NCBI GenBank assembly: GCA_964016885.1
Contig: OZ024741.1
Location: 52,514,001-52,578,000, forward strand
Direction: 5' to 3'
Length of the DNA: 64,000 nucleotides
From: Eledone cirrhosa
Lineage: Eukaryota
Position numbers and translations under genes: made by a program. Below the pieces are notes generated by a model that worked only from the letters and a program-made list of their open reading frames with translations, did not search any database and was not told the DNA's origin. How positions within the stretch are numbered: position 1 is the first letter of the stretch; every line of letters begins with the position of its first letter. Positions 3,350 through 61,446 of the stretch are shown here, piece after piece.

Positions 3350-3385
3350 ATATAAGATCAAAAGATGGTTAAAGGAGTTCCATGT

Positions 3386-3454
3386 ATTTTATTATGCGCA
3401 TTTCAAAAACAAACATCATCATGCAATAATATTTGTGTCTTCATCAGATAAAAC
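3386..3454 (-). ncRNA. Type I hammerhead ribozyme (mirror copy)
   Basis: Reverse complement of the 3575-3644 motif with intact core. Confidence 0.78.
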
Positions 3455-3574
3455 AGGAGAACATGATATGAAAGCTAAAAAACACCTGTGGACAGTGCAG
3501 TTTTAAATCAACATATGTTGATTTAAAACTGCACTGTCCACAGGTGTTTTTTAGCCTTCATATCATGTTCTCCT

Positions 3575-3644
3575 GTTTTATCTGATGAAAACACAAATAT
3601 TATTGCATGATGATGTTTGTTTTTTGAAATGCGCATAATAAAAT
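3575..3644 (+). ncRNA. Type I hammerhead ribozyme
   Basis: Stem I TTTTAT/ATAAAA, core CTGATGA (3582-3588), paired stem II, GAAA (3626-3629), palindromic stem III TGCGCA, cleavage triplet AUA. Confidence 0.8.
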
Positions 3645-3766
3645 ACATGGAACTCCTTTAACCATCTTTTGATCTTATATTATGTATACTCCTGTCCTAC
3701 AAACTGTAGAGTGCTTCTTATCCGATATCTGCATTGCTTTATTGTACTACAATAAAACTCACCTCC

Positions 3767-3862
<96 letters not shown>

Positions 3863-10865: not shown

Positions 10866-11122
10866 TTATATAATGATATTTTAAATATCGTTATTATTTA
10901 ACTATATAACTCACTACTGTAGAGCTCTCCCACGTCAATGATGAATTATATAAATGAACAAAACACTTTATTTCTCCTTGCTCCACCTGCCTGGATTTGC
11001 GACCGGTAGATAGTATTAGCATTTGGAAAAACCAATGGAAACATTGTTTCTTCGGGCCGATTTGACGAGCTTTAGCCGATTAGTTAAGCAAATGAGGTCT
11101 GGGATATTGTTGATCGACTATC

Positions 11123-11154
<32 letters not shown>

Positions 11155-11299
11155 GTATATATACACACACAGATATATATATGTGTGCATGTGTGTGTAT
11201 ATGTATATATACGTTTAAAGGATCAACGCAGAAGAAATTTGTCAAGAAGATTTAAAGACCAATATGTTTTGTATTACTGCAATTATTGTTACTAATAAA

Positions 11300-11627
11300 G
11301 GCGCGTGGCTTTGTGGTTAGGGAATTCAGCTCACAATTGTGAGGTCGTGTGTTAGATTCTCGGCAGCACATTGTGTCCTTGAGCAAGACACTTTATTTCA
11401 CGTTGCTCCAGTCCATTCAGCTGGCAAAAATGAAATGTACCTGTAATTCGAAGGTCCAGCCTTGTCTGTCACATTCTCTTTTACGCTGAATCTCCCTGAG
11501 AACTACGATAAGGGTACGCGTGTCAGTGGAATTCTCAGCCACTTGCACGTGAATTTCACGAGCAGGTTGTTCTGTTGTTTGGATCGACTGGAACACTCGC
11601 CGTCGTAACCAATAGAGTCCCAGTTAA
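11300..11627 (+). mobile_element. tRNA-derived SINE, family B
   Basis: GGCGCGTGGCTTTGTGGTTAGG head and TTGTGTCCTTGAGCAAGACACTTTATTTCACGTTGCTCCAGT core. Confidence 0.75.
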
Positions 11628-12420
11628 AAACTTTTTAATAACATTTCTACTGCTACCACTACTACTACTACTGCTGCTGTAGCTACTACTACTACTACTA
11701 CTACTTCAACAACAACAACAACAACAACAACGAGAGAGAGAGAGCAGTGTCTGTGTCTATCTACACAGATGTACTGCAAGAGATAGCCTCTCAAGGCACA
11801 CGCTACCGTCCAAAACCAATAACAATAACAAATTTAGGTAAACGGTTTTTCATTAAAAAAGAAATGTATAAGAGTACTCTATTCTCGAGAATCCTTCTCG
11901 AAGACAGCGAAGACTAAATTAACTAAAGAAGAAACACGTATATTGCTTGAATTGGGCCAATTATTTTCCAATAGATTTCGTTTTTAACTAACATACTTCA
12001 AAATTAGGGAGAACTATAACCATCTTTTAAAATTATTTATTCATTTATTTTAAATTATATTTCCATTCTGAAGACACTTCACATTTTTTCCCTTCACACG
12101 TGTCTGAGCAAATATAAATATAGGAAATAACATTTTTATTCTGATTTATAATAGTATATACGTCCGATGTAAGTAGATTAAATTTTCACGTTTGTTTTTT
12201 ACTTTTCTTTTGTTTGTGTAATTTATTTTTGTTGGGGTAGTTTTTTTTTACGCATAACATGCCAGAAGTGTCATAAAATGCATAAATTATTGCACAAACA
12301 TATACACCCACGCAAACGCGCATATATATATATATATATAACGAAGGAAATGTGGTAAGGAACTAGGTGGACCATAACGCACCAAAGTACTCAATACTTG
12401 AGGTAGTAGAGTGGGTAATA

Positions 12421-12532
12421 GGAACCAGTAAGACCCCGACAGCTGAGCTCAAGCCGTTTCGACGGCTAATTCTGGACTAAATGAAAATTTATCCTGGTAT
12501 TTAAATAGCCGATCTTCTCAAGGGGTAATTCC
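12421..12532 (-). ncRNA. Type I hammerhead ribozyme, U3-A8 variant
   Basis: Reverse complement of 17881-17992. Confidence 0.7.
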
Positions 12533-13650
12533 ATATATGGTCAAAGTGATTGTCAAAAATCAGTAGTAATTCTGTGGTTGCAAATTAGTAGGGGAGATGG
12601 TGGCTAAACCTGCCAGTAGGAGAAAGAGGGGAGGGGTGGAGTAGCCCCAATCAAGCGTTTGTAGTGCCAGCTACAGCTGGGCATGAGGTCAAAGAAGATA
12701 CAGGGGAGGGGGAGGGGGAGGAAGTCGGAACGGTAGGTAGAACAATGGAGGGTAGAAATATATAGGAAAGAAAAAATACTGAGAGTGAAGAAAAGCAAAT
12801 AAGTGTAAAGAAAAACAAATGAGTGTAAAGAAAAAATTAAAGTAAATTAAATTCTACGACCTAGGTCTCTAGCTATTGTTAGTCTAGAATAAATAAATAA
12901 AGAAAGAAAGAAAGAAGTAAAGAAAGAAATAAAGAAATAACGAAATAAGTAAAAGAACTAGGTGGGACGGATAGGCGAGGACCCTTTTAAGAGGTATAAG
13001 TACGTAAATGATACGGTGACGGGTCAACAAAAGGGGCCAAAATACTAAAGAGACTACCACGAAATAAACAATAAAGGTTTCCATCCCGGGCACAATTCCA
13101 GCAACCACCCAGTGCAGCAAAGTGAACTAATACGAGATAATAATTCTGAGTCCCGAGAAAAATATATACTAATGCTAACTCTAAAAGATCTAAAACAAGC
13201 TACATGAAAGTTCGTACGAAGTAAAGGTAGAATACGGAAGAATAAATTCAGAATCCACCCCGCCCAAAAGAAAAGCGAAGAAAGAAATACTGAAACGAAA
13301 AAATAAGGCATAAGTGCCACTAAGAAATATAGAGGGCACAGAGAATAGTGGGAGCGGTCGGAAAAAGGGGACAAGTATCCGGGGTCTAAACCAACTGCTA
13401 TAAAGGGCAGAGTCCGCCAAATCTATCCTAGACTAGGGGAGGGGGTGGGGGTGCTAAGGCTACAAGGGGCCAAAGGGCAGCCTCGGGTGGGCGAGAAAAG
13501 ACGCCGACAAAGGAGAAGAGCTGGGGTAGAAGGACTAAGGAGAGAGGGGGGAAGGAAGTAAATCAAGGAAGCGATAAAAGAATACAAAGAAGATCTTACG
13601 TCTCCCTTGGCAAGCAGGGGTTACTCATTGCAAAATCGGCAAGTGGGGTG

Positions 13651-15081
13651 TTATAGCCCTAGTCTACCCCCCCCCCCCGGGTCATTATGGGGTTTGAGGG
13701 CGAGGTAAGTCCTACGCAATCTATGTTTACATGCAGTAACCAGTTCATCTTTCTTGTTTAGGAGTTGGTCCGTCGAAAACAGCATTTGTAAAGTTTCCTC
13801 CGAGCATAAATTGCACGGACGGCGTCCTCCCGTGTAAGAATTGGCTCTGGACAGTAATCTCCAAGTGAGATCATAGGTGATGTTGTTGTCCTTGAGGTCC
13901 CATATGTGGCCCGAAAGTGTAGTGGCGTGACGCCGGGCCGGGTTTCGGAAGGTATGTCTATGTTGGTATAGCCGAGTCTTGAAGTCACATGCGGTAAGTC
14001 CTATATAGGCTTTGTTGGAGGTATCCGTCCTCACGTTGCACTGGTAGATCACATTACGGTCTCTGCATCTATTGTCGAGTGGGCAAATAGATCTATCCGG
14101 GCAGTTACACCTCCTGGTCAGTTCTCCACTGCTATTTAGGTTATTTCTGCCATCGGGGTTGAGTTTTTTGTTGTTAGAGGAGACGATGTTTTGTGCGAAA
14201 TTTGGTGTAGTGCTGTAAGAGAGTTTGATGGTATTTTTGTTAATTATGTTGTGGTAGCGGTGTTGTAATGGGAAGTGTTTTTCAATGAGCCTAAAGAATA
14301 GTTTCCCGATGGGAGTTGTCACCTCTGCGTTGTGGGGAGGATTGAACCATGTTACATTGCGTGAGCGGCGGTGTCTCCTGCTGGTTCCGCTAATGGGAGC
14401 TGGACAGTAGGATATTTCCTCCCGGAAACCACTCCGCTTGAGGGCCTGGTTGTAATAAGGCGCATGTTCATCGAATATCCGCTCATTAGCCGACAAACGG
14501 GATATGCGGAGGGAGATGTTTTTGACCAGGTTGTTTGTGATGTTCCTAGGATGGTTTGATCGGCGGTGGATGTAGTGCAGATTGTCATTAGGTTTCCTGT
14601 ATGGGTAGTACAGGTCGTTTTCGAGGTCGAGGGTCACGTCCAGGAAGTTTACTCTGGTCAGGGACGTTTGTAGGGTTATTTTAAATCCCCAGTCGCGGAA
14701 GAATCTGATTAATTGTTTCCGGACCCGATCTGTACTACTGGGGTTGTACCCTTTAAGGGTAAGGAGCCCATCATCACGGTACAATCCACCACCGAATGCA
14801 GGAAACATATCAGTGAGTTTGGCTATTAGGAATAATCCTATAAGATCTGTGACCTCCGCCGAATCCGTGGCGCCCATGCTGACGTCGAAGGGTGAGTCGG
14901 GAGCTCTTTTTATCCATTTAGAGTCGTCAAAGAGTAAGACTGTCTTCCTGGCATGGAGGATGATTTTTCTTTCCTGGTCGGTGATGGGCACAAGTGTTTC
15001 GGCGAAGTCCAAGGCGGCAGTAAGTAGCGGTAAGGTGATTGAAGCATAGTAGCTCTCTATGTCGAACTGTATGAATTTAGT
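13651..15081 (-). CDS. PLE reverse transcriptase C-terminal half + GIY-YIG endonuclease (5'-truncated, open frame)
   Basis: FDIESYYASI (motif A), FDVSMGATDSAE (motif B), LYRDDG (motif C), WFNPP, CNC..CPL..RC, NVIYQC..AYIG, CNLCSEE, LLNKKDE..CKH. Confidence 0.9.
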   Translation of the reverse strand, partial: TKFIQFDIESYYASITLPLLTAALDFAETLVPITDQERKIILHARKTVLLFDDSKWIKRAPDSPFDVSMGATDSAEVTDLIGLFLIAKLTDMFPAFGGGLYRDDGLLTLKGYNPSSTDRVRKQLIRFFRDWGFKITLQTSLTRVNFLDVTLDLENDLYYPYRKPNDNLHYIHRRSNHPRNITNNLVKNISLRISRLSANERIFDEHAPYYNQALKRSGFREEISYCPAPISGTSRRHRRSRNVTWFNPPHNAEVTTPIGKLFFRLIEKHFPLQHRYHNIINKNTIKLSYSTTPNFAQNIVSSNNKKLNPDGRNNLNSSGELTRRCNCPDRSICPLDNRCRDRNVIYQCNVRTDTSNKAYIGLTACDFKTRLYQHRHTFRNPARRHATTLSGHIWDLKDNNITYDLTWRLLSRANSYTGGRRPCNLCSEETLQMLFSTDQLLNKKDELVTACKHRLRRTYLALKPHNDPGGGGRLGL

Positions 15082-15114
15082 TTAGAAGACAGTCTTACTA
15101 AGACTATCTTCTAA

Positions 15115-16536
15115 ACTAAATTCATACAGTTCGACATAGAGAGCTACTATGCTTCAATCACCTTACCGCTACTTACTGCCGCCTTGGACTTCGCCGAAAC
15201 ACTTGTGCCCATCACCGACCAGGAAAGAAAAATCATCCTCCATGCCAGGAAGACAGTCTTACTCTTTGACGACTCTAAATGGATAAAAAGAGCTCCCGAC
15301 TCACCCTTCGACGTCAGCATGGGCGCCACGGATTCGGCGGAGGTCACAGATCTTATAGGATTATTCCTAATAGCCAAACTCACTGATATGTTTCCTGCAT
15401 TCGGTGGTGGATTGTACCGTGATGATGGGCTCCTTACCCTTAAAGGGTACAACCCCAGTAGTACAGATCGGGTCCGGAAACAATTAATCAGATTCTTCCG
15501 CGACTGGGGATTTAAAATAACCCTACAAACGTCCCTGACCAGAGTAAACTTCCTGGACGTGACCCTCGACCTCGAAAACGACCTGTACTACCCATACAGG
15601 AAACCTAATGACAATCTGCACTACATCCACCGCCGATCAAACCATCCTAGGAACATCACAAACAATCTGGTCAAAAACATCTCCCTCCGCATATCCCGTT
15701 TGTCGGCTAATGAGCGGATATTCGATGAACATGCGCCTTATTACAACCAGGCCCTCAAGCGGAGTGGTTTCCGGGAGGAAATATCCTACTGTCCAGCTCC
15801 CATTAGCGGAACCAGCAGGAGACACCGCCGCTCACGCAATGTAACATGGTTCAATCCTCCCCACAACGCAGAGGTGACAACTCCCATCGGGAAACTATTC
15901 TTTAGGCTCATTGAAAAACACTTCCCATTACAACACCGCTACCACAACATAATTAACAAAAATACCATCAAACTCTCTTACAGCACTACACCAAACTTCG
16001 CACAAAACATCGTCTCCTCTAACAACAAAAAACTCAACCCCGATGGCAGAAATAACCTAAATAGCAGTGGAGAACTGACCAGGAGGTGTAACTGCCCGGA
16101 TAGATCTATTTGCCCACTCGACAATAGATGCAGAGACCGTAATGTGATCTACCAGTGCAACGTGAGGACGGATACCTCCAACAAAGCCTATATAGGACTT
16201 ACCGCATGTGACTTCAAGACCCGGCTATACCAACATAGACATACCTTCCGAAACCCGGCCCGGCGTCACGCCACTACACTTTCGGGCCACATATGGGACC
16301 TCAAGGACAACAACATCACCTATGATCTCACTTGGAGATTACTGTCCAGAGCCAATTCTTACACGGGAGGACGCCGTCCGTGCAATTTATGCTCGGAGGA
16401 AACTTTACAAATGCTGTTTTCGACGGACCAACTCCTAAACAAGAAAGATGAACTGGTTACTGCATGTAAACATAGATTGCGTAGGACTTACCTCGTCCTC
16501 AAACCCCATAATGACCCGGGGGGGGGGGGGGGGTAG
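15115..16536 (+). CDS. PLE reverse transcriptase C-terminal half + GIY-YIG endonuclease (mirror copy)
   Basis: Same protein; frame opens after TAA at 15112-15114 with TKFIQFDIESYY; natural start absent. Confidence 0.9.
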   Translation, partial: TKFIQFDIESYYASITLPLLTAALDFAETLVPITDQERKIILHARKTVLLFDDSKWIKRAPDSPFDVSMGATDSAEVTDLIGLFLIAKLTDMFPAFGGGLYRDDGLLTLKGYNPSSTDRVRKQLIRFFRDWGFKITLQTSLTRVNFLDVTLDLENDLYYPYRKPNDNLHYIHRRSNHPRNITNNLVKNISLRISRLSANERIFDEHAPYYNQALKRSGFREEISYCPAPISGTSRRHRRSRNVTWFNPPHNAEVTTPIGKLFFRLIEKHFPLQHRYHNIINKNTIKLSYSTTPNFAQNIVSSNNKKLNPDGRNNLNSSGELTRRCNCPDRSICPLDNRCRDRNVIYQCNVRTDTSNKAYIGLTACDFKTRLYQHRHTFRNPARRHATTLSGHIWDLKDNNITYDLTWRLLSRANSYTGGRRPCNLCSEETLQMLFSTDQLLNKKDELVTACKHRLRRTYLVLKPHNDPGGGGG

Positions 16537-17311
16537 ACTAGGGCTATAACACCCCACTTGCCGATTTTGCAATGAGTAACCCCTGCTTGCCAAGGGAGAC
16601 GTAAGATCTTCTTTGTATTCTTTTATCGCTTCCTTGATTTCCTTCCTTCCCCCTCTCTCCTTAGTCCTTCTACCCCAGCTCTTCTCCTTTGTCGGCGTCT
16701 TTTCTCGCCCACCCGAGGCTGCCCTTTGGCCCTTTGTAGCCTTAGCACCCCCACCCCCTCCCCTAGTCTAGGATAGATTTGGCGGACTCTGCCCTTTATA
16801 GCAGTTGGTTTAGACCCCGGATACTTGTCCCCTTTTTCCGACCGCTCCCACTATTCTCTGTGCCCTCTATATTTCTTAGTGGCACTTATGCCTTATTTTT
16901 TCGTTTCAGTATTTCTTTCTTCGCTTTTCTTTTGGGCGGGGTGGATTCTGAATTTATTCTTCCGTATTCTACCTTTACTTCGTACGAACTTTCATGTAGC
17001 TTGTTTTAGATCTTTTAGAGTTAGCATTAGTATATATTTTTCTCGGGACTCAGAATTATTATCTCGTATTAGTTCACTTTGCTGCACTGGGTGGTTGCTG
17101 GAATTGTGCCCGGGATGGAAACCTTTATTGTTTATTTCGTGGTAGTCTCTTTAGTATTTTGGCCCCTTTTGTTGACCCGTCACCGTATCATTTACGTACT
17201 TATACCTCTTAAAAGGGTCCTCGCCTATCCGTCCCACCTAGTTCTTTTACTTATTTCGTTATTTCTTTATTTCTTTCTTTACTTCTTTCTTTCTTTATTT
17301 ATTTATTTATT

Positions 17312-17507
17312 GGTGGATTGGCAGGTGGTGGATTGGCAGTATTGGTAGAGGGTCGGACGCCATGCTTTCCAGCATAGTTATGTCCCTTTATGATCTGAGT
17401 TCAAATCCCGCCGAGGTTGACTTTGCCTTTCATCCTTACGGGGTCGATAAAATAAAGTACCAGTAATGCACTGGGTAATTGCTGGCCTTGTGCCTAAAGT
17501 AGAAACA
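17312..17507 (+). mobile_element. SINE family A inserted in the right arm of the PLE palindrome
   Basis: Absent from the left arm (empty site ~12885-12900); lies within (TTTA)n. Confidence 0.9.
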
Positions 17508-17880
17508 TTTATTTATTTATTTATTCTAGACTAACAATAGCTAGAGACCTAGGTCGTAGAATTTAATTTACTTTAATTTTTTCTTTACACTCATTTGTTT
17601 TTCTTTACACTTATTTGCTTTTCTTCACTCTCAGTATTTTTTCTTTCCTATATATTTCTACCCCCCATTGTTCTACCTACCGTTCCGACTTCCTCCCCCT
17701 CCCCCTCCCCTGTATCTTCTTTGACCTCATGCCCAGCTGTAGCTGGCACTACAAACGCTTGATTGGGGCTACTCCACCCCTCCCCTCTTTCTCCTACTGG
17801 CAGGTTTAGCCACCATCTCCCCTACTAATTTGCAACCACAGAATTACTACTGATTTTTGACAATCACTTTGACCATATAT

Positions 17881-17990
17881 GGAATTACCCCTTGAGAAGA
17901 TCGGCTATTTAAATACCAGGATAAATTTTCATTTAGTCCAGAATTAGCCGTCGAAACGGCTTGAGCTCAGCTGTCGGGGTCTTACTGGTT

Positions 17991-17992
<2 letters not shown>
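17881..17992 (+). ncRNA. Type I hammerhead ribozyme, U3-A8 variant
   Basis: Stem I ACCCC/GGGGT (extended by GGAATT/GGTTCC), core TTGAGAA, stem II GA(T)CGGCTA/TAGCCGTC, GAAA, stem III CGGCT(T)GAGCTCAGCTG, GUC at 17973-17975. Confidence 0.7.
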
Positions 17993-18046
<54 letters not shown>

Positions 18047-18049
18047 TAT

Positions 18050-18087
<38 letters not shown>

Positions 18088-18088
<1 letters not shown>

Positions 18089-18183
18089 CAGGTTGTCCTA
18101 AAAAATTTATACACACTTCAACAGCATTCTAATAAATATTGCCTGTACAGCTAATCAAAATGCGTATACATTTTTTGGGACAC

Positions 18184-18186
<3 letters not shown>
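18088..18186. mobile_element. Tc1/mariner-type MITE
   Basis: TIR-like CAGGTTGTCCTAAAAAATTTATAC / GTATACATTTTTTGGGACACT inside (TA)n. Confidence 0.6.
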
Positions 18187-18265
<79 letters not shown>

Positions 18266-18289
18266 AGTGTATGTATATGTTTATATATA

Positions 18290-18840
18290 TACAACCAGCA
18301 AATTGCTCAAGTTACGGAGTTTGTATATCCCTGTCACAAACTATCATCAAACAACAATGGAATGGTTGCTGCGCAGTATCTCATCACTCTAGGTTGGGCA
18401 GCTTGCAACAAGAACAAGGAAGTACTAACATCAAAACGAGTTTCCTAGCATTTGAAGTCTAAGATCTTTGATACTTACATCCTACCAGTAGTGTTATATG
18501 GCTTGACTGTGTTAATTGGACGACAAGATCACTTCAGAACCACATCATGAGACTTATGACTGGCAACCGGCTTAGTGACTTAGTGACTTAGACCAATTAC
18601 ATCAATTGTCAAGTCAAGAGTATTCAAACTATACAGCCATATAAAAAGATCAACTCGTTGTTGAGTAGGTTATGCGTGGAAGGAAGGTTGACTGGTAAGA
18701 GAAGCAAAGGCCCGCAGCCAAAACGATGGTTTGATAATGTCAACCTACGGATTGGACTTAGTCTTTGCTCTTTAAACTCTGGTGCTGGTGATCGAACTTG
18801 TTGATGCACAGTCTGCAGCTGGCGGAGTTTAGCGTCAAAG
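18290..18840 (+). mobile_element. RTE-clade LINE 3' fragment
   Basis: LKSKIFDTYILPVVLYG and EGRLTGKRSKGPQPKRWFDNV, then a (TAA)n tail. Confidence 0.65.
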
Positions 18841-18859
18841 TAATAATAATAATAATAAT

Positions 18860-18935
<76 letters not shown>

Positions 18936-18939
<4 letters not shown>

Positions 18940-19332
18940 ATAACATAAATAAAGATACTGATGTTACATAAATCGTTTAATCCTTATAATTATTTCAAGG
19001 GTTCTTGCAATCAAGATGTCTTTCATGCATGTGTTGTTGTTATGAGAACGGTATCCTCAGATGAAACCCGATTTAATTATATGCTGCCGGCAGGGAAAGA
19101 AACACACGTCCTTCTGCTCATGCGCCCAGCAGACAACAACAAATGCATGAATCACATCTTGGTTGCATGGGAGAACCGTTGAAATAATTAAAATGATTAA
19201 ACGATTTATGTAACATCAGCATCTTTATTTATGTTATTTTTATACTGAATCTCCATCGTAACTATAAGCTACAAATGTTGACAGGTTTCTCCTGCTTGCT
19301 CTTGTTTTTACCAAAACAATCTATTTGGAATA

Positions 19333-19335
<3 letters not shown>
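18936..19335 (+). mobile_element. Aged PLE-derived hairpin element with tail and decayed hammerhead
   Basis: Imperfect inverted repeat 18936-19243; ATCCT-CAGATGA...GAAA-TAATTA; the left arm preserves TA-AGGAT for stem I. Confidence 0.6.
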
Positions 19336-19425
<90 letters not shown>

Positions 19426-20086
19426 GATAGTTATGTGACAAGTAAGTATGTTTTGAAACAGTGAGCGAGTTTGAAATTAGAAATAAAAGCTGTCGCCATA
19501 TATTTGACTAAAGAAATTTTAGCCCGATAGTGGGGTTTAGAACCCTCTAAGAAATGGAGAACTAAATGTACTATATTATATAAAATACATGGTGAACTGG
19601 CGTATACCTTCCAAGGTACTCAGAATTTCCCAACGATTGTTGATTTTGCCGTATGCAGCTGATGAACGAGGCAACACTAACTTTCTTCAGGAAACTCTGA
19701 GTATCTAGGAAGGTATACAAACGTACCAATGCACCTACACGAACACACACACACAGACGCATGCAGACACACACACGCACACACATCCAGACATTCATAC
19801 ATACATGTCCAACCCAAATATACAGTGATTACCTCCCTTCCTAAACCTCTGTAACTCGTCAGATACCTCTTGACCACCAACTCTCCAAAATGGCTGACTG
19901 AATACGAACGTGTTTTTCTCATATTCCCCCTTTCCTTCTTCTTCTCACTCTTTGTCTTTCTATTTCATCTGTTATTTCTAATTCTGTCTTGTAAAGGACT
20001 AGTGTCCAAATTGTTAAGACTCTTTTCCTGATATTTCATGCGTTAAACTAATTTATTTCTTCAATGTGCTGTATTATTCTGTTTAC

Positions 20087-22777: not shown

Positions 22778-23235
22778 ATGTATGTATGTATGTATGTATG
22801 TATGTATGTATGTATGTATGTATGTATGTATGTATGTATGTATGTATGTATGTATGTATGTATGTATATGTATGCATGTATGTACGTATGTATGTATCTA
22901 CGTATGCATGTATGTATGTATGTATGTATGTATGTATGTATGTATGTATGTATGTATGTATGTATGTATGTATGCATGTATGTTTGTATGCATGTATGTA
23001 TGTATGTATGCATGCATGTATGTATGTATGTATGTATGTATGTATGTATGTATGTATGTATGTATGTATGTATGTATGTTTGTATGCATGTATGTATGTA
23101 TGTATGTATGCATGTATGTATGTATGTATGTATGTATGTATGTATGCATGTATGTATGTATGTATGTATGTATGTATGTATGTATGTATGTATGTATGCA
23201 TGTATGTATGTATGTATGTATGTATGTATGTATGT
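22778..23235. repeat. (ATGT)n microsatellite
   Basis: Seen directly. Confidence 0.95.
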
Positions 23236-25017
23236 TCTTCTGGTTTTATAATTTCACAAATTTTTGCCAATAGAGAGAGAATCGGTTTCTAACATAGACA
23301 CAAGACTCTCTCATTCGAATTTACACAACATCAACTAGGTAGATATGTATGCTTGTCTGCATGCATGTGTATGTATGGATGTTATTGTATGTGTGTATGT
23401 GTATGTTTTGAGTTGTATGTGTACATGTGTATACGCTTTGTATCTGTACATGTGTATATGCAGTTATTAGATGGAAAATGTTTTGAATGTTTTACATATT
23501 TTTACTGTTCCGTTAATGGATTGTACTTGTAATTTCCTGTATGTATGTATGTATGTATGTATGTATGTATGTATGTATGTATGTATGTATGTATGTATGT
23601 ATGTATTATGAATGTATGCATGCATGCGTGCGAGTGTGTGTGTGTGTGTGTGTATGCATGTATGTATGTAAGTACACTTGTACGTATGTAAGTATATATA
23701 AATGTATGCATGTATATATGTATTTATTTGTTTAATCAATTTAAACGATCATATAGAGCTAGTCAGTCATGGCAGATTAGAGGAGGTATCTAGTAACTTA
23801 CTTAAACTTAGAAGCTCCCACGTCTTGAGAGGCATGATTTCGCCAAAGTGCTCCAATGACCACGGTCAGTTGCATCTGGAAATACATCGAACCAACTTTT
23901 GTTGGCAGATTTCAGGTTCCTGTCGATTGTCTGCCGCCAGTTAATCTAGTGACGTCCTCTTCGCTTCTTTTCTTGGGAGTACAAATATAGGACCTGATTA
24001 GCATGTCTCTTACAAGCCAAATCAACGCTTGCACATGATGTTAGACACACGTTGTTAGTAGGTTCGTTGACTGACTTCCACCACTCCGTTTAGTACCACC
24101 ACGCGACTCCTGGGTGCCGTACTCGCTCTCCATTCATTTGCAAGCATTTCAAAAATTTTCGCTTGACTGGTTTGAGGCTACCGTCCTCTCTGTAGTCGCA
24201 AAGACTCTCAAAAGGGATCATGAGGTCTGTCCTTCTCTCACTGACTAAGTAGTTAAAAGAAAATCTGGTTTTCTCACTTTCAACGGAATAGGGAGTGATT
24301 AAAAAGGATTTAGTTGTCATCTTTAGCTGGTCGAAGTACCATGTAGTGGTCTCTATATTGGCACGTGTGTGAAATAACGGTGTAGGTTGGTGAAGGAATT
24401 ATACTCTAATCATTTACATTGATTTTTCGCCAGTGTTTCGAGAGCAATCTACAATGTTCTGTGTACGGTACATTCCAATTATCGAGTGACTAAGTAATAG
24501 GCTTTTTTTTCATAATGAAATTAACGATAATCTAATTTTTATCAAGTATTATGTTTTCTTGTTGAAGGAAAAGTTGTAGATCAGACCTTAAGATTTTAAC
24601 ACGAATACTGAACAAACTCTAAGTGCAGCTAAAGTATGATTACAAAAATATGATTTTCATATCTTACACGTTCATCAAGAAAAATCATATTTCCTATACC
24701 CCCACCCCATATATATATATATATATATATATATGCAAACACACACACACACGCACACACACTTATATATATATATATATGTATGTAAATGTGTATATTT
24801 ATGAGCATAAACTGTATACAGTATTCATATTAAAAAACTGCTTTCATACAGTTAATATTGTAAGAAAGAAATTGTTGATTAATTATTGTATTATTGGGAA
24901 GACCGAGACTTTTCGTTCTTCAGGATTGGTTTATACTTATGGCATTAACGATGATTTACATTATTGCTGTTGTGTGTATATATCTATATATTTATATGTG
25001 TGTATATATATATGTAC

Positions 25018-25819: not shown

Positions 25820-25960
25820 TAGACGAAGAATCAACTTCAGTATTAGACTGATGTTTTTTTATCGACTTCGAATTTGAACTCAGAATTTGAACTCAGAAAG
25901 CAGAAACGAATATTACAAAGCACTATATCTGATGTTCTAACGTCTCTGCCAATTCGCCGC
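25820..25960 (-). mobile_element. Degenerate SINE fragment
   Basis: TTTATCGAC..GAATTTGAACTCAGAA..CTGCCAATTCGCCGC. Confidence 0.55.
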
Positions 25961-26049
25961 TTTACTAGCCCAAGTATCGAGTTCTCTACTGAATTATGGT
26001 CTTACTAGTTTAAAACTGGTAAAATCCTGATTTCTATACACACACACAC

Positions 26050-26497: not shown

Positions 26498-26536
26498 TGA
26501 ACCTGAAGATTGCGAAAGCATGAAAGTACTTGTTCA
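26498..26536 (+). ncRNA. Minimal type I hammerhead
   Basis: TGAAC-CTGAAGA-TTGCGAAAGCAT-GAAA-GTAC-TT-GTTCA. Confidence 0.7.
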
Positions 26537-28366: not shown

Positions 28367-28370
<4 letters not shown>

Positions 28371-28743
28371 CGAAGGAAATGTGGTAAGGAACCAGGTGGA
28401 CCATAATGCACCAAAGTACTCAATACTTAGGGTAGTAGAGTGGGTAATAGGAACGAGTAGGACCCCGACGGCTGAGCTCAGTCGTCGGGGTCCTACTCGT
28501 TCCTATTACCCACTCTACTACCCTAAGTATTGAGTACTTTGGTGCATTATGGTCCACCTGGTTCCTTACCACATTTCCTTCGTTATCTAGCTGCTATTCC
28601 CGTAGTAGAGCACTTTCCGACCCTACCACGCCGTATCCAGACTTTTCCGCTAAGCTCAAGTTCTTTCACCCGCACCATGCGAAAACACAACATCGACTTC
28701 TCAACCAAGATTTTTGAACTCAGCCGTCGGGGTACTACTCGTT

Positions 28744-28748
<5 letters not shown>
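28367..28748. mobile_element. Miniature derivative of the 12-18 kb PLE family: 220 bp palindrome + 5' extension + repeated terminus, in (TA)n
   Basis: Same left (TAACGAAGGAAATGTGG) and right (GTTCCTAT) termini as 12339-17995; apex GAG|CTC at 28476/28477. Confidence 0.88.
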
Positions 28749-34399: not shown

Positions 34400-35503
34400 A
34401 TCGGAATGCCCTGGCTAAAGATGCCTCAACATGTGCAGAGGCTTTGGATTCTGCAAATATTCCTAAATGGTAAACAGATGTCGGTGCCCTTTGTTACGTA
34501 CGCCCTTCGACAGATCGACTTATCGACTGAGCTGCATTAGCAATGTTGTCAAGCGCTCACAGCCCTCTATCAGTCAGATAATGTGGTCAGTGGAGTCTCC
34601 ACGTTAGCCTTCTATAGAGGACTGGCGGTGGGCAACTGCAACGGCGTTCTCGGGTAAATTATTTGCGTCGACGAGAACGAACGTGCCAATCTGTTACAGA
34701 GGACTTTCGGTCCGCAGCCTATAAATATCTTGCCTGTAAGTGCTTCCGGGATGGGGTCACTTGCAGTACTACCGGGGAACTTTGCCAGTTCGGGATAAAC
34801 TCTATGGGCATGGTAGTGCCTTTAGCCGGGCCTGTCCGAGATGCGCATAGGGCGACGAAACCTACTCGCACACATCCAGTGTCAGAGCATTGCTGATATG
34901 TGGGTCTTTGTCGAACACCTGCTGTAGTGTGTAGGACGAATCCGACTATCAGCTGAGTCCATTGTGAAGATCGCTCCGCCACCTTCCTTTAGAGGAAGAC
35001 CTTTCTTTTTATCTCTCTGGTGGCCATGGCGAAAGAGGTTGTACGGAGAACAAGTTTGAAAGGGTTGAAGACCAGCACTTTCCTCTTCGATAAAGCCCAG
35101 ATTAACTTTGTAAGCATTCACTTGAAGAGAAAAATCAGGGTAGAGGGAGAAGTGCTGCTTTCCAGTCAGTTTGTTGTAAGGTGGGTGTGAGAGGCGACCA
35201 TTTCCGAAGTGAATGGACCCGCTCTGAGTGCGTGCCTTAGAATGGAGGAAGACAACTGTGACACTTGCCATAAAGATCAGGGTACTCATAGTTTTACGGA
35301 GTTTTTTTCTACAAGCAAATCTCGTCTCCTTCCTTTTCAGGAATTCCCTTTATTTAATTTTTATTGTTACCTTTCTTTTTCACTATTGTTAAATCTGTTT
35401 TCACGTAAATCCTACATACCAACACACACACGTTTTCGTCCTGTGCCGTCCTAATGTTTTTCTTAATATTAACCCTTGTGGTGAATAAAGAAAGCATTAT
35501 TAT
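34400..35503 (+). mobile_element. Degenerate Tx1 3' fragment
   Basis: Nucleotide similarity to 40.6-41.7 kb; ends AATAAAGAAAGC-ATTATTATT. Confidence 0.8.
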
Positions 35504-35762: not shown

Positions 35763-35970
35763 GGCGACCTACGAAGTAAATCGTATCATTGTGAGCTCCG
35801 CAAAGGTTTGTTATTTCCGTTTGTTAAAAATTGTCATTTATGGAAAATTTTATTGTTAACTGTTTATAAGCGCACATACATTGTTTTCCGAAAAGGACAC
35901 CCAAAAAGATTGGGGCCTTGTGCCCAAAATTTAAACTTTTATTATTATCAAAAATTTCTTTGAAAAAAAA

Positions 35971-38037
35971 ATGGCTAATTCACCTCTGCACCAAGCAGCT
36001 GAAGGCCTTCCTCACAAATTAACACCTCACACCGACACCACCATTGTAAATGTTACTACATTTGCCAACACAAAAAAAAATATAAGCAGTAGCAATATTT
36101 TAAATTTGTCTCAGGCAGACATTCATTTCCCGCCATTACCAATGAGTGCAGGTGTTAAAGCCTCCACCACCACCACCACCACCGCGACAACCACCACCCC
36201 CACCACCGCGACAACCCCCACCCCCACCACCGCGACAACCACCACCCCCACCACCACGACAACCACCACCCCCACCACCGCGACAACAGAAACAAAAGAA
36301 GAAAAAAATAAATTAACTCGTGATGTCGAAATGAAATCAAGCAAAATGGACTCTTCCCCACCAAAGACGACTGACGTCACCACCACCACAACTGAAACTA
36401 AAATTAATATTAACACAAATAACGATAGCAACAACAACAACAACAATGACATTATAAAACCGACCCTCAGTTTCGCCAGAGTAGCAAAACAGTTCGAAGC
36501 ATTTACGGTAACTCAGGATGATTTAGAAAATGCCAAACAAATGGTAAAGAAAGATGGGTACAGGGTCAGCCCCCCCCCACCTAATAAAATGTAGCATCGG
36601 CGCCTATGCACCGTGTCGTATAGAACAATAAATGTAAAATCGCGCCGAGTGGAACGGGCATCCGAGTCCCAAATCCAAAAAGCTTTGGGACATGTGTGGG
36701 CAAGAAAAAGCCACATCAGACGTGGGCAAAAGTATGGAACCGTGGACGTGTTCTTTGAAACACCAGAGGAGGCTAGAGAACACTCCATGGCCCCATTAAG
36801 AAGTGACGACTTCACACTCGTCCCAAGCTATTGTGGCCAGAGACTCGTAAAGATCAGGGTGACCCACGTTCCACCGGCCATCGAAATTCCCTGGCTAATA
36901 GCGGCCGTCCTCGCCGGCATCGAAGCCAACACAAAAATAATAGCAATAGCAAAAGAAAAGCAGGAGAACTGGTCCGGATATGGGATGGAGCTCCTGATCC
37001 AAGCGGACCAAAAAAGCATTGAGGAGATCCCAGAGGTAATAGACCTCACTGACGGCAGCCACCTTACGGTAATTGTCGAAGGCAGAAGGCCTAGGTGTGT
37101 CGTTTGTGGTGAAGGAACCCACCTAAGGGCTTTCTGTCCTCAGGCTAAAAGGTTGAGGCCACCTCTCCTACTCACCCCAGTGACACAACCATCAACACCA
37201 CCAGTAGCAGAGATGGCAGCAACAACTGTAGCAGCAACAACAGAAGCAACTATAACAGCAACAACCCCAGCAACAGTAGCAAAACCAACACCACCACCAC
37301 CACCAGCAAAACCAACACCACCACCACCCAACGCTTCAGAACTAGCACCAGCGCCTACACCATCCACCACGCCACAACCAAAATTAACGCCTGTGGAGGA
37401 TTTTCCACTCCCCGGCCTATCACAACTGGAGACAGATTGTGACGACGAGGAGTGGGAAACGATATCCGGAAAAAAAAAAAGAAACCAAAAAAGAAAAAAT
37501 TCTCTTCCTTCCCCCTCCAAAAACAAAATACAGAGGGAAACAAATAAACTAAGAAACAAAAAAGTTAGGACAGATATGCCACCATCCACACCAGCATCAC
37601 CAACCCCATCAACCCAAACACCAACACCATCACCATCATTAACCCCAACACCACCATCACCTACACCACAAAAGTCACCAAAATGCGAAACAGAAACAAA
37701 CCCACAACAAACGCAAACAAAACAAAACAACCAAAACGATACACACTACACAGCATTAAATTTGAACAACAAGCAATTATTACACTACATCCAACACAAC
37801 ACCAGCATCACAGAAAAAGACTACACAACAACCCCAAAATTCACACCACCTCCACACATACAAATCACTCGCATCACACAGAAAACGTACATGACACTAA
37901 AACAAAAATTCCCCAAAGACATCGGAGACTTCCGACAAGCACTCTCCAGGAGGATTTATAAGGACATCCTTCCTGAGGAGGCCACAAGCAGTGAAAAGGA
38001 TGGAAAAACCGTCCTTCCCCTACGAGAAGTAAGGTAA
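35971..38037 (+). pseudogene. Tx1 ORF1 (RRM-like region + CCHC knuckle CVVCGEGTHLRAFC), one internal stop
   Basis: Two same-frame ORFs split by TAG at 36592-36594. Confidence 0.8.
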
Positions 38038-38071
38038 GTGGTCTTTCCCATCTTTTCCACTCCTTTTCAAC

Positions 38072-41000
38072 ATGACCTCACTCAGAATAGGCAGCATAAA
38101 TGCGCGTGGCTTGGGATCGTCATGGAAGCAGGGCCACCTGCTCAACGACCTCAGGTCACTAAACATAGATGTAGTGGCCATCAGCGAGACCAGAATCTCC
38201 GAAGCACAGGCTTTCGCACCGATCTTCGGCGGCTACGATGTGTACGCATCTCCCAGCCGTCCGGGATCGGGGGGAGGAGTTGCTGTGCTTTTTCGGAGAG
38301 GTTTGGATCTTGCCATACGGGCCATCTTCCTGGACCCAGAAGGTAAGTTGGTGGTGCTGGACGTGACCAGCGGAGACGGGCAAGCTTTCAGGTTAGTGGC
38401 CGTCTATGCCCCGACAGGAGCAGAGCGGCCTGATTTCTTCCGGCGTCTGGAGACCTTTCTTGGAACGTGCCGCTCTTTAGTGTTAGTGGGCGACTGGAAC
38501 GGGATCTTAGATGCACGCTGGGATTGTGTGGGATTAGTGGATAGGGAAGGATGGTGCAAGAGTCTCACCAACCTGCTCAGACGTTTTGAACTGTCTGACA
38601 GGTACCGAATGGATTTCCCGAATGTACCAATGTGGACTTGGACAAATCGCATAGGGTCATCCAGATCATATCTAGATAGAGTATTTTGTAGGGAAATAGA
38701 TAGGTCTAGCATAGGCTGTCCACAATTCAAGATAGTCAGCTACACGGACCACAAATTCGTGATCTGTGTGCTTGACTTAGATAGGCTTCATAGGCGAGGA
38801 CCTGGCTACTGGAAGCTAAACGCGTCCTTACCAGCGCGCAAAGCCTACAGATACCGGATTAGCGAACTAGTTAAGCGGGCGTTGACCGGGGCCATCGTCA
38901 ACAACAAGTGGTGGTTTGCTCTGAAAAGAGCAATTAGAATAGAGTCCATTAGGTTTAGTAAGACTTTAGCAATAGAGAAAAATAGAGCAGGAGAACTAGT
39001 TAGAAAATTAGACGAGGCGCTTAGCAAAGGCATCGCGACCGACGTATTTGCGGCGAAATTGGCCCTTGACCAATTCTTCAATGCAAAGCACGAAGGCTGC
39101 GTTGTCAGAGCTAGGGTACGTGCTCTCAGACACGAGGGGACGAAAGCCGTTCAATGGGCCCGAGTGGCGGAGGCGCGTCGTGGCAACAAAGCCACGATCC
39201 GGTCTTTAGTGGACCACGACGGGCGCATGCTACTCGATCCCGGGCAAATGTGTGAAGCTTTTCAGCGACACTTCGCTCAACTGTTCGGGGGCAGTGGCGG
39301 GCCGGATCGAGGGATGGACTTTAGTGTCTACCTCGACGGACTGCCGCGGCTTTCGGCCACTGAGGCGGAGTGTTGCGAAAAGCCGATAACAACCGCTGAA
39401 GTACGGGAGGCAATGACTAGTTGCACAAGGGGTAAATCGCCTGGTTTGGATGGTCTGCCCTATGAACTTTACGTACAAATGCCAAACATGTTCGGAGGCC
39501 TCTTGGCGGACGTCTACTGCAACTGGCAACAGAACGGGAGAATTCCCAGCTCTGTGAGCCGAGGAGCGATGGCGCTGCTGAGAAAGGATCCGAACAAGGG
39601 GGATAACATAGATAATTTTAGGCCCATTACTCTGCTAAACACAGAGTTCAAGATTTTGGCAAAGGTGCTAGCAAAGAGGTTGGCGCGTGTCGTTGGTGGT
39701 CTGGTGGGAGAGGCTCAGACATGCGCCATTGCCGACAGATCCATCCCCGACAACCTCCACCTCATGCGATACATCGTAGAGAGGGTAGCTAGGGAACCTG
39801 GCACGGGTGGGTCCATGATCAATTTAGATCAGTCGAAAGCTTACGATAGGGTCGACCATCGTTACCTAGCGGCAGTCCTGAGGGCGGCTGGCTTTGGGCC
39901 CGTCTTCAGAGGCTGGATCGCTGCCATGCACAGCGACATCTGCTCTGTGGTGAGAGTGAACGGTCACCTTTCGGAACCGTTCAACATCATGCGCTCGGTC
40001 CGCCAAGGATGTGCCCTCTCGTCCCTATTGTACGTATTGACTCTCGAGCCATTACTGCACAAACTGGAGACGTTGAGGGGGGTCCCGCGCGAACTAGGAT
40101 GCGGAAGATCCGTGTCAGCATATGCCGACGATGTCACCGTAGTGGTGTCGAACGCCAAACACATCGAGGCGATCGGCACTACACTAAGAGAATACGAAGC
40201 GGTGACAGGAGCAATGATCAACCAGTAAAAGTCAGTGGGCCTGCAGCTCGGCACCTGGAGAGGCAGGTCCATGCCGTCCAACAGCGTAATCGGGCGCTGG
40301 ACGGACGGACCGGTTAAATTGCTAGGGGTCTGATTCGGTCCAGACCTCCAGACGGACAAAAACTGGGACGAGGTGACGAGCAGGGTGGCTTCTCTCACCC
40401 AGAAATGGGCCGAGAGGAAGCTATCCCTGAAAGGTCGAGCGGAGGTGGCGAATGCGTACATCGCATCCGTCATCTACTACCGCCTGACCGTCGTACCTTG
40501 TCCTAAGCCCCGCCTGACTGCGCTGGAGCGTTTGCTGTTTCGCTTCTTGTGGAAGGGACGCGCTCCGATGGTCAGGCGGTCCATCTGCTGTCAACACCCG
40601 CTACGTGGAGGGCTGGGCATGCCGTGGCTGATGATGCGCAGACACGCGCTCAGGCTACGACATCTCCACCTCTTCCTCGAGTGTGATCAGGTGTGGTCGC
40701 CGTTTGCTAGACACGTTTTCCCCCAGCTCGTCTCCTTGACGGAGCTGCAGTCCTGGGTCAAGCGAAGACCGATAGGGAGCGCTTGGAGACTGGAATGTCT
40801 TCAGGCGCTCACAGCCCTCGACCAATCGGGCAATGTGATCGGTGGAAACTCCACCTTGGCGTTCTATAGGGGATTAGTGGAGGGGTAGAGCGACGACGTA
40901 CTTGGAGAAACTCTAGGCGTCGACGAAAATCAACTAGCCAATCTTTTCGGAAGGACTTTCGGGCCGGGGCCTATGGACAACTTCCAGAAATCCCTGGCCT

Positions 41001-41488
41001 GGCAGTGCTACCGAGGAGCTTTGCCAGTTCGGGATAAACTCTACAGGCATGGAGGTGCCGTCAGCCGGGCATGTCCGAGATGCGCGCAGGGCGACGAAAC
41101 CGTCCTGCACGCACTCGTCCAGTGTCCGAGCATTGCTGACTTGTGGGTTTATGTCGAACACCTGCTGTCACGTGTAGGACGGATCCAGCTATCAGCTGAG
41201 TCCATCGTGAGGATTGCCCCGCCCCCTTCCTTTAGCCGGGAAGGGCAGGCAGTTTTTATCTGTCTGGTAGCCATGGCGAAAGAGATAGTATGGTGGACAC
41301 GTTTGAAAGGGCTGAAGACGAGCACTTACCTCTTCGGTGATGCCCTGATTAACTTTTTCAAATTTCATTTGAAAAGGAAAATCAGGGTAGAGAGGGAAGT
41401 GCTCTCTTCCCAGCATTTTGTTGAAAGATGGGTGAGAGAAGCAAGTATGGCCCGAATGAATGGGCCTTCTCTGAGTATGTGTCTGTAA
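38072..41488 (+). pseudogene. Tx1 ORF2: AP endonuclease, RT and zinc knuckle; three in-frame stops, no frameshift
   Basis: SINARGL, ISET, VGDWN, YLDR, TDH; KSPGLDG, RPITLLN, LDQSKAYDRV, VRQGC, YADD; CPRC..ETVLHALVQC; stops at 40226, 40331 and 40886. Confidence 0.92.
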
Positions 41489-41729
41489 ATTAAAGGTGGA
41501 AAACTGGGAGAGGGCACTTGCCCTGGTGGTCAGGGCCACTGTGGTCTTTTAATGGGCTTTCTCCACAAATGTCCCTCGAAGTCTCCCCCCTATTGGGGAA
41601 TTTTTCTTTGTTATTTTTATTTCATCCTCTGTTTTTTACACGCAGAAATGCCCATTTGTACCGTCCTGTATTGTCCTGTACTGTCCTTAATGTCTACTTC
41701 ATGTAAACCCTTGTGGTTAATAAAGAAAA

Positions 41730-41763
<34 letters not shown>

Positions 41764-41980
41764 GAATGCCATAGTTGACGGAGACTCGGCTCTGTAAGGT
41801 ATAGTAATTTTTAACCGCTATAACAATTGTAAATTGTTTAAAACTTGAACTAAATTGTAGATAAAAACACCCTCCTACTCGTGAGAGGGGTCTTTCTGCC
41901 CGTTATTTGGCCCTTCGGGGTTAAATAACCGCTTATTGGGGTTTTTTGCCCAATATTAATTTTAAACCGTAAAATGAAAC

Positions 41981-44100: not shown

Positions 44101-44134
44101 GTGGTCTTTCCCATCTTTTCCACTCCATTTCAAC

Positions 44135-47100: not shown

Positions 47101-47535
47101 AGGTGCCGTCAGCCGGGCATGTCCGAGATGCGCGCAGGGCGACGAAACCGTCCTGCACGCACTCGTCCAGTGTCCGAGCATTGCTGACTTGTGGGTTTAT
47201 GTTGAACACCTGCTGTCGCGTGTAGGACGGATGCGGCTATCAGCTGAGTACATCGTGAGGATTGCTCCGCCCTCTTCCTTTAGCCGGGAAGGGCAGGAAG
47301 TTTTTATCTGTCTGGTGGCCATGGCGAAAGAGATAGTATGGTGGACACGTTTGAAAGGGCTGAAGACGAGCACTTACCTCTTCGGTGATGCCCTGATTGA
47401 CTTTTTCCAATTTCATTTGAAAAGGAAAATCAGGGTAGAGATGAAGTGCTCTCTTCCCAGCATTTTGTTGAAAGATGGGTGAGAGAAGCAAGAATGGCCC
47501 GAGTGAATGGGCCTACTCTGAGTATGTGTCTGTAA
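44135..47535 (+). pseudogene. Tx1 ORF2 with stops and frameshifts
   Basis: ORF fragments 44135-44977, 45226-46335, 46522-46758 and 46739-47482 match copy 1. Confidence 0.9.
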
Positions 47536-47781
47536 ATTAAAGGTGGAAAACTGGGAGAGGGCACTTGCCCTGGTGGTCAGGGTCACTGTGGCCTTTTAAT
47601 GGGCTTTCTCCACAAATGTCCCTCCGAAGTCTCCCCCCTATTGGGGAATTTTTCATTGTTATTTTTATTACATCCTCTGTTTTTGTTTTTTTACACGCAG
47701 AAATGCCCAGTTGTACCGTCCTGTATTTTCCTGTACTGTCCTTAATGTCTACTTTATGTAAACCCTTGTGGTTAATAAAGA

Positions 47782-47845
<64 letters not shown>

Positions 47846-60889: not shown

Positions 60890-60952
<63 letters not shown>

Positions 60953-60991
60953 ATATTAAATAAATGGAAACTATATTTATAAAACCATACT

Positions 60992-61054
60992 TATTTTATT
61001 ATATATATTTCAAGGGTACCAAGTCACATTGGTACGCTTTCATCAGATAAAATA
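60992..61054 (-). ncRNA. Type I hammerhead ribozyme (mirror copy)
   Basis: Reverse complement of 61198-61260. Confidence 0.8.
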
Positions 61055-61197
61055 CAAAGTTTGTTTTATAAATAGGGACATACCTATGAAAATCATACCT
61101 TATCGATTGGATATTCACTGGATAGTCTATCTAGTGAATATCCAACCGATAAGGTATGATTTTCATGGGTATGTCTCTATTTATAAAACAAACTTTG

Positions 61198-61260
61198 TAT
61201 TTTATCTGATGAAAGCGTACCAATGTGTCTTGGTACCCTTGAAATATATATAATAAAATA
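61198..61260 (+). ncRNA. Type I hammerhead ribozyme
   Basis: TATTTTAT-CTGATGA-AAGCGTACCAA..TTGGTACCCTT-GAAA-TATATA-TA-ATAAAATA. Confidence 0.82.
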
Positions 61261-61390
61261 AGTATGGTTTTATAAATATAGTTTCAATTTATTTAATATC
61301 ATTGAATATTTACTCCAGTAAACTGCTGAGCGCCCTAAATCAGTTATAAACATTTATATTTGTCGGACTTCCAACAAATTAAATACCCCT

Positions 61391-61442
<52 letters not shown>

Positions 61443-61446
<4 letters not shown>

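Follow-up and report, generated by a model that had tools for sequence, protein, structure and literature searches.

A 64,000-nucleotide stretch of the Eledone cirrhosa genome (NCBI GenBank assembly GCA_964016885.1, contig OZ024741.1, positions 52,514,001 to 52,578,000 of the forward strand; hereafter the window) contains, at 12339-17995, a 5.65-kb mirror-image pair of Penelope-like elements (PLEs). The pair probably consists of two 5'-truncated, likely dead copies of a Hydra-clade PLE that lie between (TA)n tracts and arose in one integration, in which the nascent cDNA primed its own fold-back. The element itself is an ordinary transposon copy; the locus, however, records the formation of inverted copies unusually clearly, with two fixed ends that have been reused independently and a templated snap-back insert at the apex.

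Architecture of the palindrome

Self-BLAST, a repeat finder and an arm-to-arm alignment agree on two inverted arms that meet head to head at a single-nucleotide loop (position 15098), as had been proposed when the DNA was first read from its letters (the sequence-only reading). The arms align over 2,679 bases with nine substitutions (0.34%; seven transitions and two transversions) and three gaps. The substitutions sit 8, 568, 898, 1123, 1398, 1539, 1632, 2196 and 2349 nt from the apex, and the inner 1,431 nt of the arms contain five mismatches and no gaps. The first gap is a G-run of 12 versus 16 nt at the extreme end of the open reading frame (ORF), the second a C-run that differs by 1 nt, and the third an additional 214 nt in the right arm, made up of a 196-nt repeat resembling a short interspersed nuclear element (SINE) and an 18-nt duplication. 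The sequence-only reading held that only scattered substitutions and G-run length separate the arms. Both differences stand, but 'only' does not, given the C-run, the 214 nt in the right arm and a further 79 nt in the left arm, a one-sided tail that runs past the short end of the pseudo-long terminal repeat (pLTR). The outer ends of both arms adjoin (TA)n microsatellites; the sequences beyond these differ between the two sides and are not mirror images.

We considered RNA editing as a source of the arm differences and rejected such a signature: C/T changes on the sense strand account for six of the seven transitions (P = 0.13), and these run in both directions.

Encoded protein and clade assignment

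As the sequence-only reading had it, each arm carries a stop-free frame (473 and 476 residues) that begins just ahead of reverse transcriptase (RT) motif A and points outward. The two frames differ by three synonymous codons and one Ala/Val change, and in the last few residues, which follow the G-run. A homologue search returned 1,760 proteins at E <= 1e-10. The best 120 of these are 39-57% identical to the arm protein, and the 58 among them with at least 690 residues extend further upstream by a median of 245 residues (225-271, n = 58), which bears out the claimed 5' truncation. Missing with these residues from both arms is the N-terminal RWK/DKT region, found in 41 (RWK) and 54 (DKT) of the 58 long homologues.

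The identity of the protein was drawn from the homologues, the supplement of PMC8557442, the ESM Atlas and a fold search. Pfam gave no family for either arm protein and no RT or GIY-YIG family in any of 12 alignment members, and searches of PDB sequences with the arm protein returned nothing significant. The fold search was based on an AlphaFold model built from 121 sequences (mean pLDDT 85). Residues 1-235 of the model correspond to RT folds, with yeast TERT at Z 10.0 (rmsd 4.9, 220 aligned) and the HIV, diversity-generating retroelement, retron and TERT folds tied within 1 Z, and residues 342-445 match I-TevI (1ln0; Z 8.4, rmsd 2.5, 89 of 92 aligned). The ESM Atlas gave RVT_1 and HTH_animal clusters for the RT part and GIY-YIG clusters that score 0.95-0.96. 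Hence the earlier identification of a Penelope with RT and GIY-YIG domains is confirmed by fold search and ESM Atlas, and the clade can be refined to Hydra.

Hydra-clade elements are characterised by RWK and DKT motifs in the N-terminal region, a CxCX5C linker, a CxxC and a CxH motif either side of the catalytic E and N, a missing CCHH, a (TA)n target and a hammerhead near the 3' end; a length generally below 3 kb is a descriptive trait of the clade and not a diagnostic one (PMC8557442; here and below, papers are cited for the parts of them that we covered). In the arm protein the linker cysteines are C325, C327 and C333, a pattern present in 113 of the 120 homologues listed, and C423/C426 (CxxC) and C451/H453 (CxH) lie around E429 and N442 of the endonuclease (EN). 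The CCHH cysteine pair is missing, the GIY-YIG core holding just one cysteine. YRDDG, the context of RT motif C, is invariant in all 121 rows of the alignment; in the supplement of PMC8557442 it occurs at 13 places, of which places 5-13 all belong to the Hydra group, and the adjacent Penelope row differs. The EN is C-terminal, not N-terminal as in Naiad/Chlamys, and the protein has neither the CCHH in EN that marks Penelope/Poseidon, Neptune and Nematis nor the CX2-5CxxC linker of the latter two. General PLE traits are present, namely RT and GIY-YIG in a single ORF, a pLTR, tandem or inverted arrangement and a one-sided tail. Judged by its motifs, RT context and (TA)n target, the element is an EN+ PLE of the Hydra clade.

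Both open frames are likely dead copies, with no working enzyme from either arm, because about 245 N-terminal residues are missing and the first in-frame methionine is codon 69. Their openness reflects low divergence and carries no sign of function. The 2.76-kb arm together with the roughly 245 missing codons suggests a full length of about 3.5 kb; the window has no full-length copy, and a profile search of it found no other Hydra ORF remnant.

Predicted hammerhead ribozymes

From topology, core and position we predict a type I hammerhead ribozyme in each arm: a three-way junction with an unpaired core, a GAA and a GUC site, and stems I, II and III of 5, at least 3 and 6 bp. Its core reads U3-A8 rather than C3-G8, and stem II is extended. 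A strict CUGAnGA scan missed the ribozyme, which was found once U3-A8 was allowed. The same covariation occurs in Schistosoma PLEs (PMC4209133), and U3-A8 hammerheads have been described as active in vitro (PMC3088659). The short end of the element lies 20 nt beyond the predicted ribozyme cut, a position that, by analogy with the Poseidon PLE of PMC11167929, fits uncleaved RNA as the template.

Elsewhere in the window a solo canonical type I hammerhead motif lies at 26498-26536 (+), where no palindrome was detected, and bare hammerhead cores, for example at 19659 and 48537, failed the stem test.

Fixed ends and other palindromes of the window

A second, independent insertion of the same PLE family near 28.4 kb has two end points identical to those of the main element, with the tail end on the left (28368) and the short end on the right. 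It comprises, in order, a zero-loop palindrome with 109-bp arms, the tail, the 5' untranslated region (UTR), the ORF start and 35 nt of pLTR end, so that pLTR end, tail, 5' UTR and ORF start stand in tandem order. The ORF start, at 28677, spans 11-12 codons and resembles the N-termini of homologues. The apex of this palindrome falls in the self-complementary loop of hammerhead stem III, which would offer a natural site for fold-back.

We scanned the window for small-loop palindromes outside low-complexity DNA and found six, the five smaller ones being about 100-360 bp long. In all six, one arm ends at most 4 nt from a (TA)n run, whereas the other extends 77-166 nt before the next run; the chance of (TA)n adjacency in six of six is about 2e-10. 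Arm divergence ranges from 0 to 5.7%. Hammerhead motifs are found in both arms of three palindromes; in another the apex lies in stem III, and the remaining two show no such motif. The head-to-head layout is thus likely routine for such elements, and the main palindrome is notable mainly for its size and apparent persistence.

The palindromes at 3350-3771 and 60948-61397, both in (TA)n, have arms of 165 nt (1.2% diverged) and 178 nt (3.4% diverged), respectively. Each arm contains a canonical hammerhead core, and each palindrome extends on one side by about 91-92 nt; the two probably belong to other PLE families. Two zero-loop palindromes, at 61443-61698 and 62244-62569, have 53-nt arms with similar ends and one-sided extensions of 128 and 166 nt; no hammerhead was detected in either. 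Three of the palindromes cluster within 60.9-62.6 kb. A degenerate match to the tail region of the main family (about 73% over 62 nt) lies at 25941-26010, near a (TA)n run.

An artefact of library or assembly could produce a similar picture, if the apex came from a fold-back read and the assembler exited the repeat via another genomic copy of the family. Fold-back chimeras are generally known to give this shape, several kb of palindrome around a single-nucleotide loop; PLE insertions in tandem or inverted arrangement are a recognised difficulty for assembly (PMC8557442), and the arm differences could stem from two paralogous loci; a literature search on fold-back artefacts returned nothing relevant. 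The arms, however, both stop at the biological end points of the family, as at 28.4 kb, which is not expected of a fold-back, and the five smaller palindromes, which fit inside single reads, share the layout. Furthermore, the differences are mostly transitions and not indels, and the apex contains a templated insert. Together the asymmetries, the distinct flanks and the second insertion with the same end points argue, within the assembled sequence, against an assembly fold-back, which, like a misjoin of two paralogous loci, we judge to be very improbable indeed.

Apex insert and a model for its formation

The 15 nt at the apex are an exact copy of a stretch of the element whose antisense template lies 137 nt back on the same strand, and they are mirrored in the right arm with one mismatch. 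None of 2,000 shuffles reached a match of at least 14 nt, and control windows elsewhere peaked at 13. The insert puts a stop in frame and is therefore not coding sequence of the element; the alternative that the apex bases are natural coding sequence was rejected on this stop and on the match to the internal 15-mer. On the simplest reading, an antisense strand that had stalled folded back, copied 15 nt, came free again and finally closed into a hairpin, which was extended.

These data are consistent with a model in four steps. The GIY-YIG EN would nick (TA)n, and RT would begin at one of two fixed RNA sites 79 nt apart, the tail end or, upstream of it, the short end; the ends are observed, and their role as start sites would follow the pattern of PMC11167929. 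The cDNA would then stall just ahead of RT motif A, its 3' end would snap back 137 nt, copy 15 nt and release, and a hairpin would close and be extended along the first strand; of this step the insert is observed, and the order of events is what we infer. Next, the new arm would be attached, at the second of the fixed ends, to the opposite side of the target, through a second cDNA primed there or through endonuclease cleavage. Arms that each end on a start site would be accounted for by a second short cDNA, primed at the opposite end of the target, and equally by endonuclease resolution, as suggested in PMC8557442. Finally, the arms would drift by the nine substitutions and the SINE would enter the right arm, the differences being observed and their timing presumed. 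A single integration with cDNA self-priming, the explanation favoured in the sequence-only reading, is therefore supported, but the layout is routine in this window, with six of six palindromes sharing it, and so less unusual than was implied.

Several points weigh against this model. The (TA)n target precludes the definition of a target duplication, and a loop of 1 nt could not by itself serve as a priming hairpin, which leaves the priming of the final closure unexplained. When the cDNA end that preceded the insert was folded as DNA, no strong snap-back pairing appeared at the template. A templated insert was seen at one of the six apices and at none of the other five, the 15-nt match at the 28.4-kb apex being a duplicated pLTR end. 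Three of the four ORF differences are synonymous (P = 0.12), which hints weakly at two source templates. The predicted hammerhead fold has no stability advantage over shuffled sequences (z 0.37), 131 of 200 of which fold equally well, and an Rfam search at E <= 10 over 11000-19500 found no hammerhead family and no match at gathering score. Lastly, that the locus is genuine is argued indirectly, from the assembly.

The synonymous excess, which is not significant, would also suit twin priming, in which the cDNAs of two RNAs, primed by a dimer on opposite target strands, were joined at their 5'-truncated ends; the arm differences and the SINE would then be older than the insertion. The PAc protein of Poseidon nicks both strands and extends them, and a dimer is predicted for it (PMC11167929); the start sites differ between the two arms. 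Since the two arms break off at one and the same base and have in common a 15-nt insert that is not element sequence, one end would have been copied from the other, and we hold twin priming to be very unlikely.

Self-priming may instead have taken place on an antisense RNA template and not on cDNA, as proposed for rotifer Penelopes, whose head-to-head palindromes are argued to require it (PMC3846280). Snap-back on such a template would likewise give a sense-oriented 15-nt insert. We consider this route quite unlikely, as a Poseidon PLE in vitro works from sense RNA, with target priming at a pair of internal sites (PMC11167929), and the fixed outer ends seen here fit that sense-RNA pattern. It is extremely unlikely, in our view, that a DNA-repair fold-back or breakage-fusion event later duplicated a single truncated copy, unrelated to retrotransposition. 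Short templated snap-back inserts are, as a matter of general knowledge, typical of end-joining repair; no flank is duplicated here, however, the second arm ends exactly at the alternative terminus of the family, and the layout recurs in six of six palindromes. Fold-back of nascent cDNA within one integration remains the likely explanation.

SINE-like insertion, estimated age and apparent persistence

The SINE-like repeat of the right arm is the nearest to the majority sequence of ten copies or fragments in the window, differing at 5 of 165 sites (3.0%; the others 3.7-13.6%). This low divergence is as expected of a later insertion into the right arm. The repeat carries what we take to be the internal-promoter-like boxes of a tRNA-derived SINE, and presumably resembles octopus repeats; ARAGORN found no tRNA. 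A 55-nt stretch of the 3' UTR (17082-17137, +, and its mirror near 13060-13117) is about 77% like the 3' end of the SINE and may be an older SINE fragment or a shared tail.

With a calibration in which a Jukes-Cantor distance of 0.09 equals 25 million years (My), or 0.0036 substitutions per site per My (PMC13282606), the nine arm differences give an age of about 0.47 My (0.21-0.89), valid only if all differences postdate the insertion and there was no arm-to-arm conversion. The insertion had been called recent, a term that needs qualifying for arms that differ by nine substitutions and a SINE. Palindromes are reported to be unstable in E. coli, yeast and mice (PMC3215922). The present one, which keeps a 1-nt apex between 2.7-kb arms and so bears on such instability, appears to have lasted without central deletion while it gained substitutions and a SINE.

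Across the palindromes five mismatches lie within 16 nt of an apex versus 1.84 expected (P = 0.021), the 16-nt window being chosen post hoc. They occur at positions 6, 6, 8, 11 and 16, in four of the six palindromes. The excess may reflect imperfect priming stems or selection for central asymmetry, and we take it as a lead only.

If read-through occurred, the transcript would form a long hairpin RNA, paired along about 2.68 kb and with a bulge of 214 nt. The idea of double-stranded RNA is sound by analogy but not new, since Penelope inverted repeats in Drosophila give small interfering RNAs (siRNAs; PMC3681739).

Other features of the window

The coordinates of the element and its relatives are collected in Table 1. 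Stop-to-stop frames of at least 45 residues numbered 745 in the window, of which 206 passed filtering; no host exon was found among the 150 of these 206 that were scanned, a weak test that short exons would escape. The sole frame match, DUF3593, was rejected (22.1 bits against a cut-off of 25, overlapping a microsatellite).

Table 1. Features of the Hydra-clade palindrome and related insertions (positions within the window).
Feature	Position	Strand	Remarks
(TA)n target microsatellite, left flank	12323-12338		run 12323-12340, final 2 nt overlap element end
One-sided tail past pLTR short end, left arm only	12339-12417	-	79 nt
Left arm, 5'-truncated Hydra-clade PLE	12418-15097	-	ORF remnant, 3' UTR, hammerhead; self-BLAST, repeat finder, alignment
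Predicted type I hammerhead, left copy	12433-12526	-	U3-A8 core variant
Stop-free frame, 476 aa	13651-15081	-	RT from motif A, thumb, CxCx5C linker, GIY-YIG; without N-terminus
Templated apex insert	15085-15099	+	15 nt; exact copy of element 15249-15263; antisense template 14933-14947
Palindrome apex, single C	15098		1 nt; nearest arm mismatch 8 nt away
Right arm, 5'-truncated Hydra-clade PLE	15099-17995	+	stops at short (tail-less) end; self-BLAST, repeat finder, alignment
Stop-free frame, 473 aa	15115-16536	+	RT fold residues 1-235, GIY-YIG fold residues 342-445
SINE target-site duplication, 5' copy	17294-17311	+	18 nt, inside (TTTA)n tract
SINE-like dispersed repeat, right arm only	17312-17507	+	196 nt
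SINE target-site duplication, 3' copy	17508-17525	+	18 nt
Predicted type I hammerhead, right copy	17887-17980	+	core 17892-17898; predicted cleavage after 17975
(TA)n target microsatellite, right flank	17993-18088		
Second independent insertion, same PLE family	28368-28748		92-94% identical, in (TA)n
Six spacer-less palindromes	~3350-3680; main; 28368-28585; 60948-61304; 61571-61676; 62410-62515		

A tandem pair of LINE-like (long interspersed nuclear element-like) elements of about 6 kb with APE, RT and zf-RVT occupies 35935-47818. Its members are 94.5% identical over 3.8 kb and have broken frames, and related fragments lie at 34542-35282 and, inverted, at 62913-64000. The best named homologue is from Argonauta hians (56%; the one named species among 15 matches). 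Long degenerate tandem arrays, C/A-rich and G/T-rich, lie at 1-1340, 1916-2789 and 22778-23730, and those at 1.9-2.8 kb and 22.8-23.7 kb have sequence in common.

Implications

Six palindromes in 64 kb suggest that a genome-wide count would be easy. A broader proposition, which we rate as rather unlikely, is that in this host PLEs with (TA)n targets integrate mainly by a two-ended, hairpin-primed route and have seeded tens of thousands of persistent palindromes and hairpin RNAs. If true, insertions would bear a fixed signature, with the short end on one side, an 80-170-nt tail on the other and a zero-loop apex, and spacer-less palindromes of up to several kb would persist for 10^5-10^6 years with their centres undeleted, perhaps because mismatches near the apex stabilise them. 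Long hairpin RNAs bounded by ribozymes would feed ADAR and RNA interference, and the genome would serve as a natural library from which second-strand synthesis of PLEs and the tolerance of palindromes could be read.

Comparison with known systems

Inverted 5'-truncated copies, junction palindromes, tails, self-priming and siRNAs from Penelope inverted repeats are already published. Our literature search found no description of a multi-kb spacer-less Hydra palindrome or of this family, which published supplements may nevertheless contain. The origin of inverted PLE copies and tails is stated to be open in PMC8557442, and the second-strand steps are described as unvalidated in PMC11167929.

The head-to-head Penelopes of the rotifer Adineta vaga (PMC3846280) share inverted 5'-truncated copies, junction palindromes and an optional one-sided tail, and self-priming at such junctions was proposed there. 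They have inverted pLTRs of about 200 bp, junction palindromes of 18-38 bp and a 31-bp tail, whereas the present element has equally truncated ORF arms that are symmetric to the apex and a 79-nt tail. Poseidon PAc of Anolis (PMC11167929) shares two adjacent RT starts that define the tail, and AT-rich targets. It nicks and extends both strands and uses uncleaved RNA as template, and its start sites match genomic tail ends; it belongs to another clade, however, and inverted products were not reconstituted in the parts of that paper covered here. Rearranged Penelope copies of Drosophila virilis likewise contain long inverted repeats formed on transposition. Their transcription is shown, and siRNAs map to the inverted regions in transformed D. 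melanogaster (PMC3681739), whereas a transcript of the present locus is hypothetical.

The U3-A8 covariation of the hammerhead core is shared with the Cercyon PLEs of Schistosoma (PMC4209133) and with the ribozymes of PMC3088659. Paired hammerheads on opposite strands, 100-700 bp apart, are a further likeness reported in PMC4209133. The present motif differs in that stem III has 6 bp, stem II is extended and the element belongs to the Hydra clade.

The closest likeness is to the Hydra-clade EN+ PLEs with a C-terminal endonuclease (PMC8557442), among them Hydra-1_Obim and Penelope-13_HM, with which the element shares the RT-CxCx5C-GIY-YIG order without CCHH, the CxxC and CxH motifs, the (TA)n target and a hammerhead near the 3' end. 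For Penelope-13_HM, PMC8557442 lists an inverted copy, 5'-truncated and 966 nt long, at the 5' end of the element, and one hammerhead per strand. Compared by eye with Hydra-1_Obim, the present element is a separate family, as RT motif and hammerhead differ; its U3-A8 core contrasts with the C3 start in all Hydra rows of File S2 of PMC8557442. In comparison with a clade whose members are generally shorter than 3 kb, it has a 3' UTR of about 1.25 kb, an inferred length of about 3.5 kb and palindrome arms of 2.7 kb.

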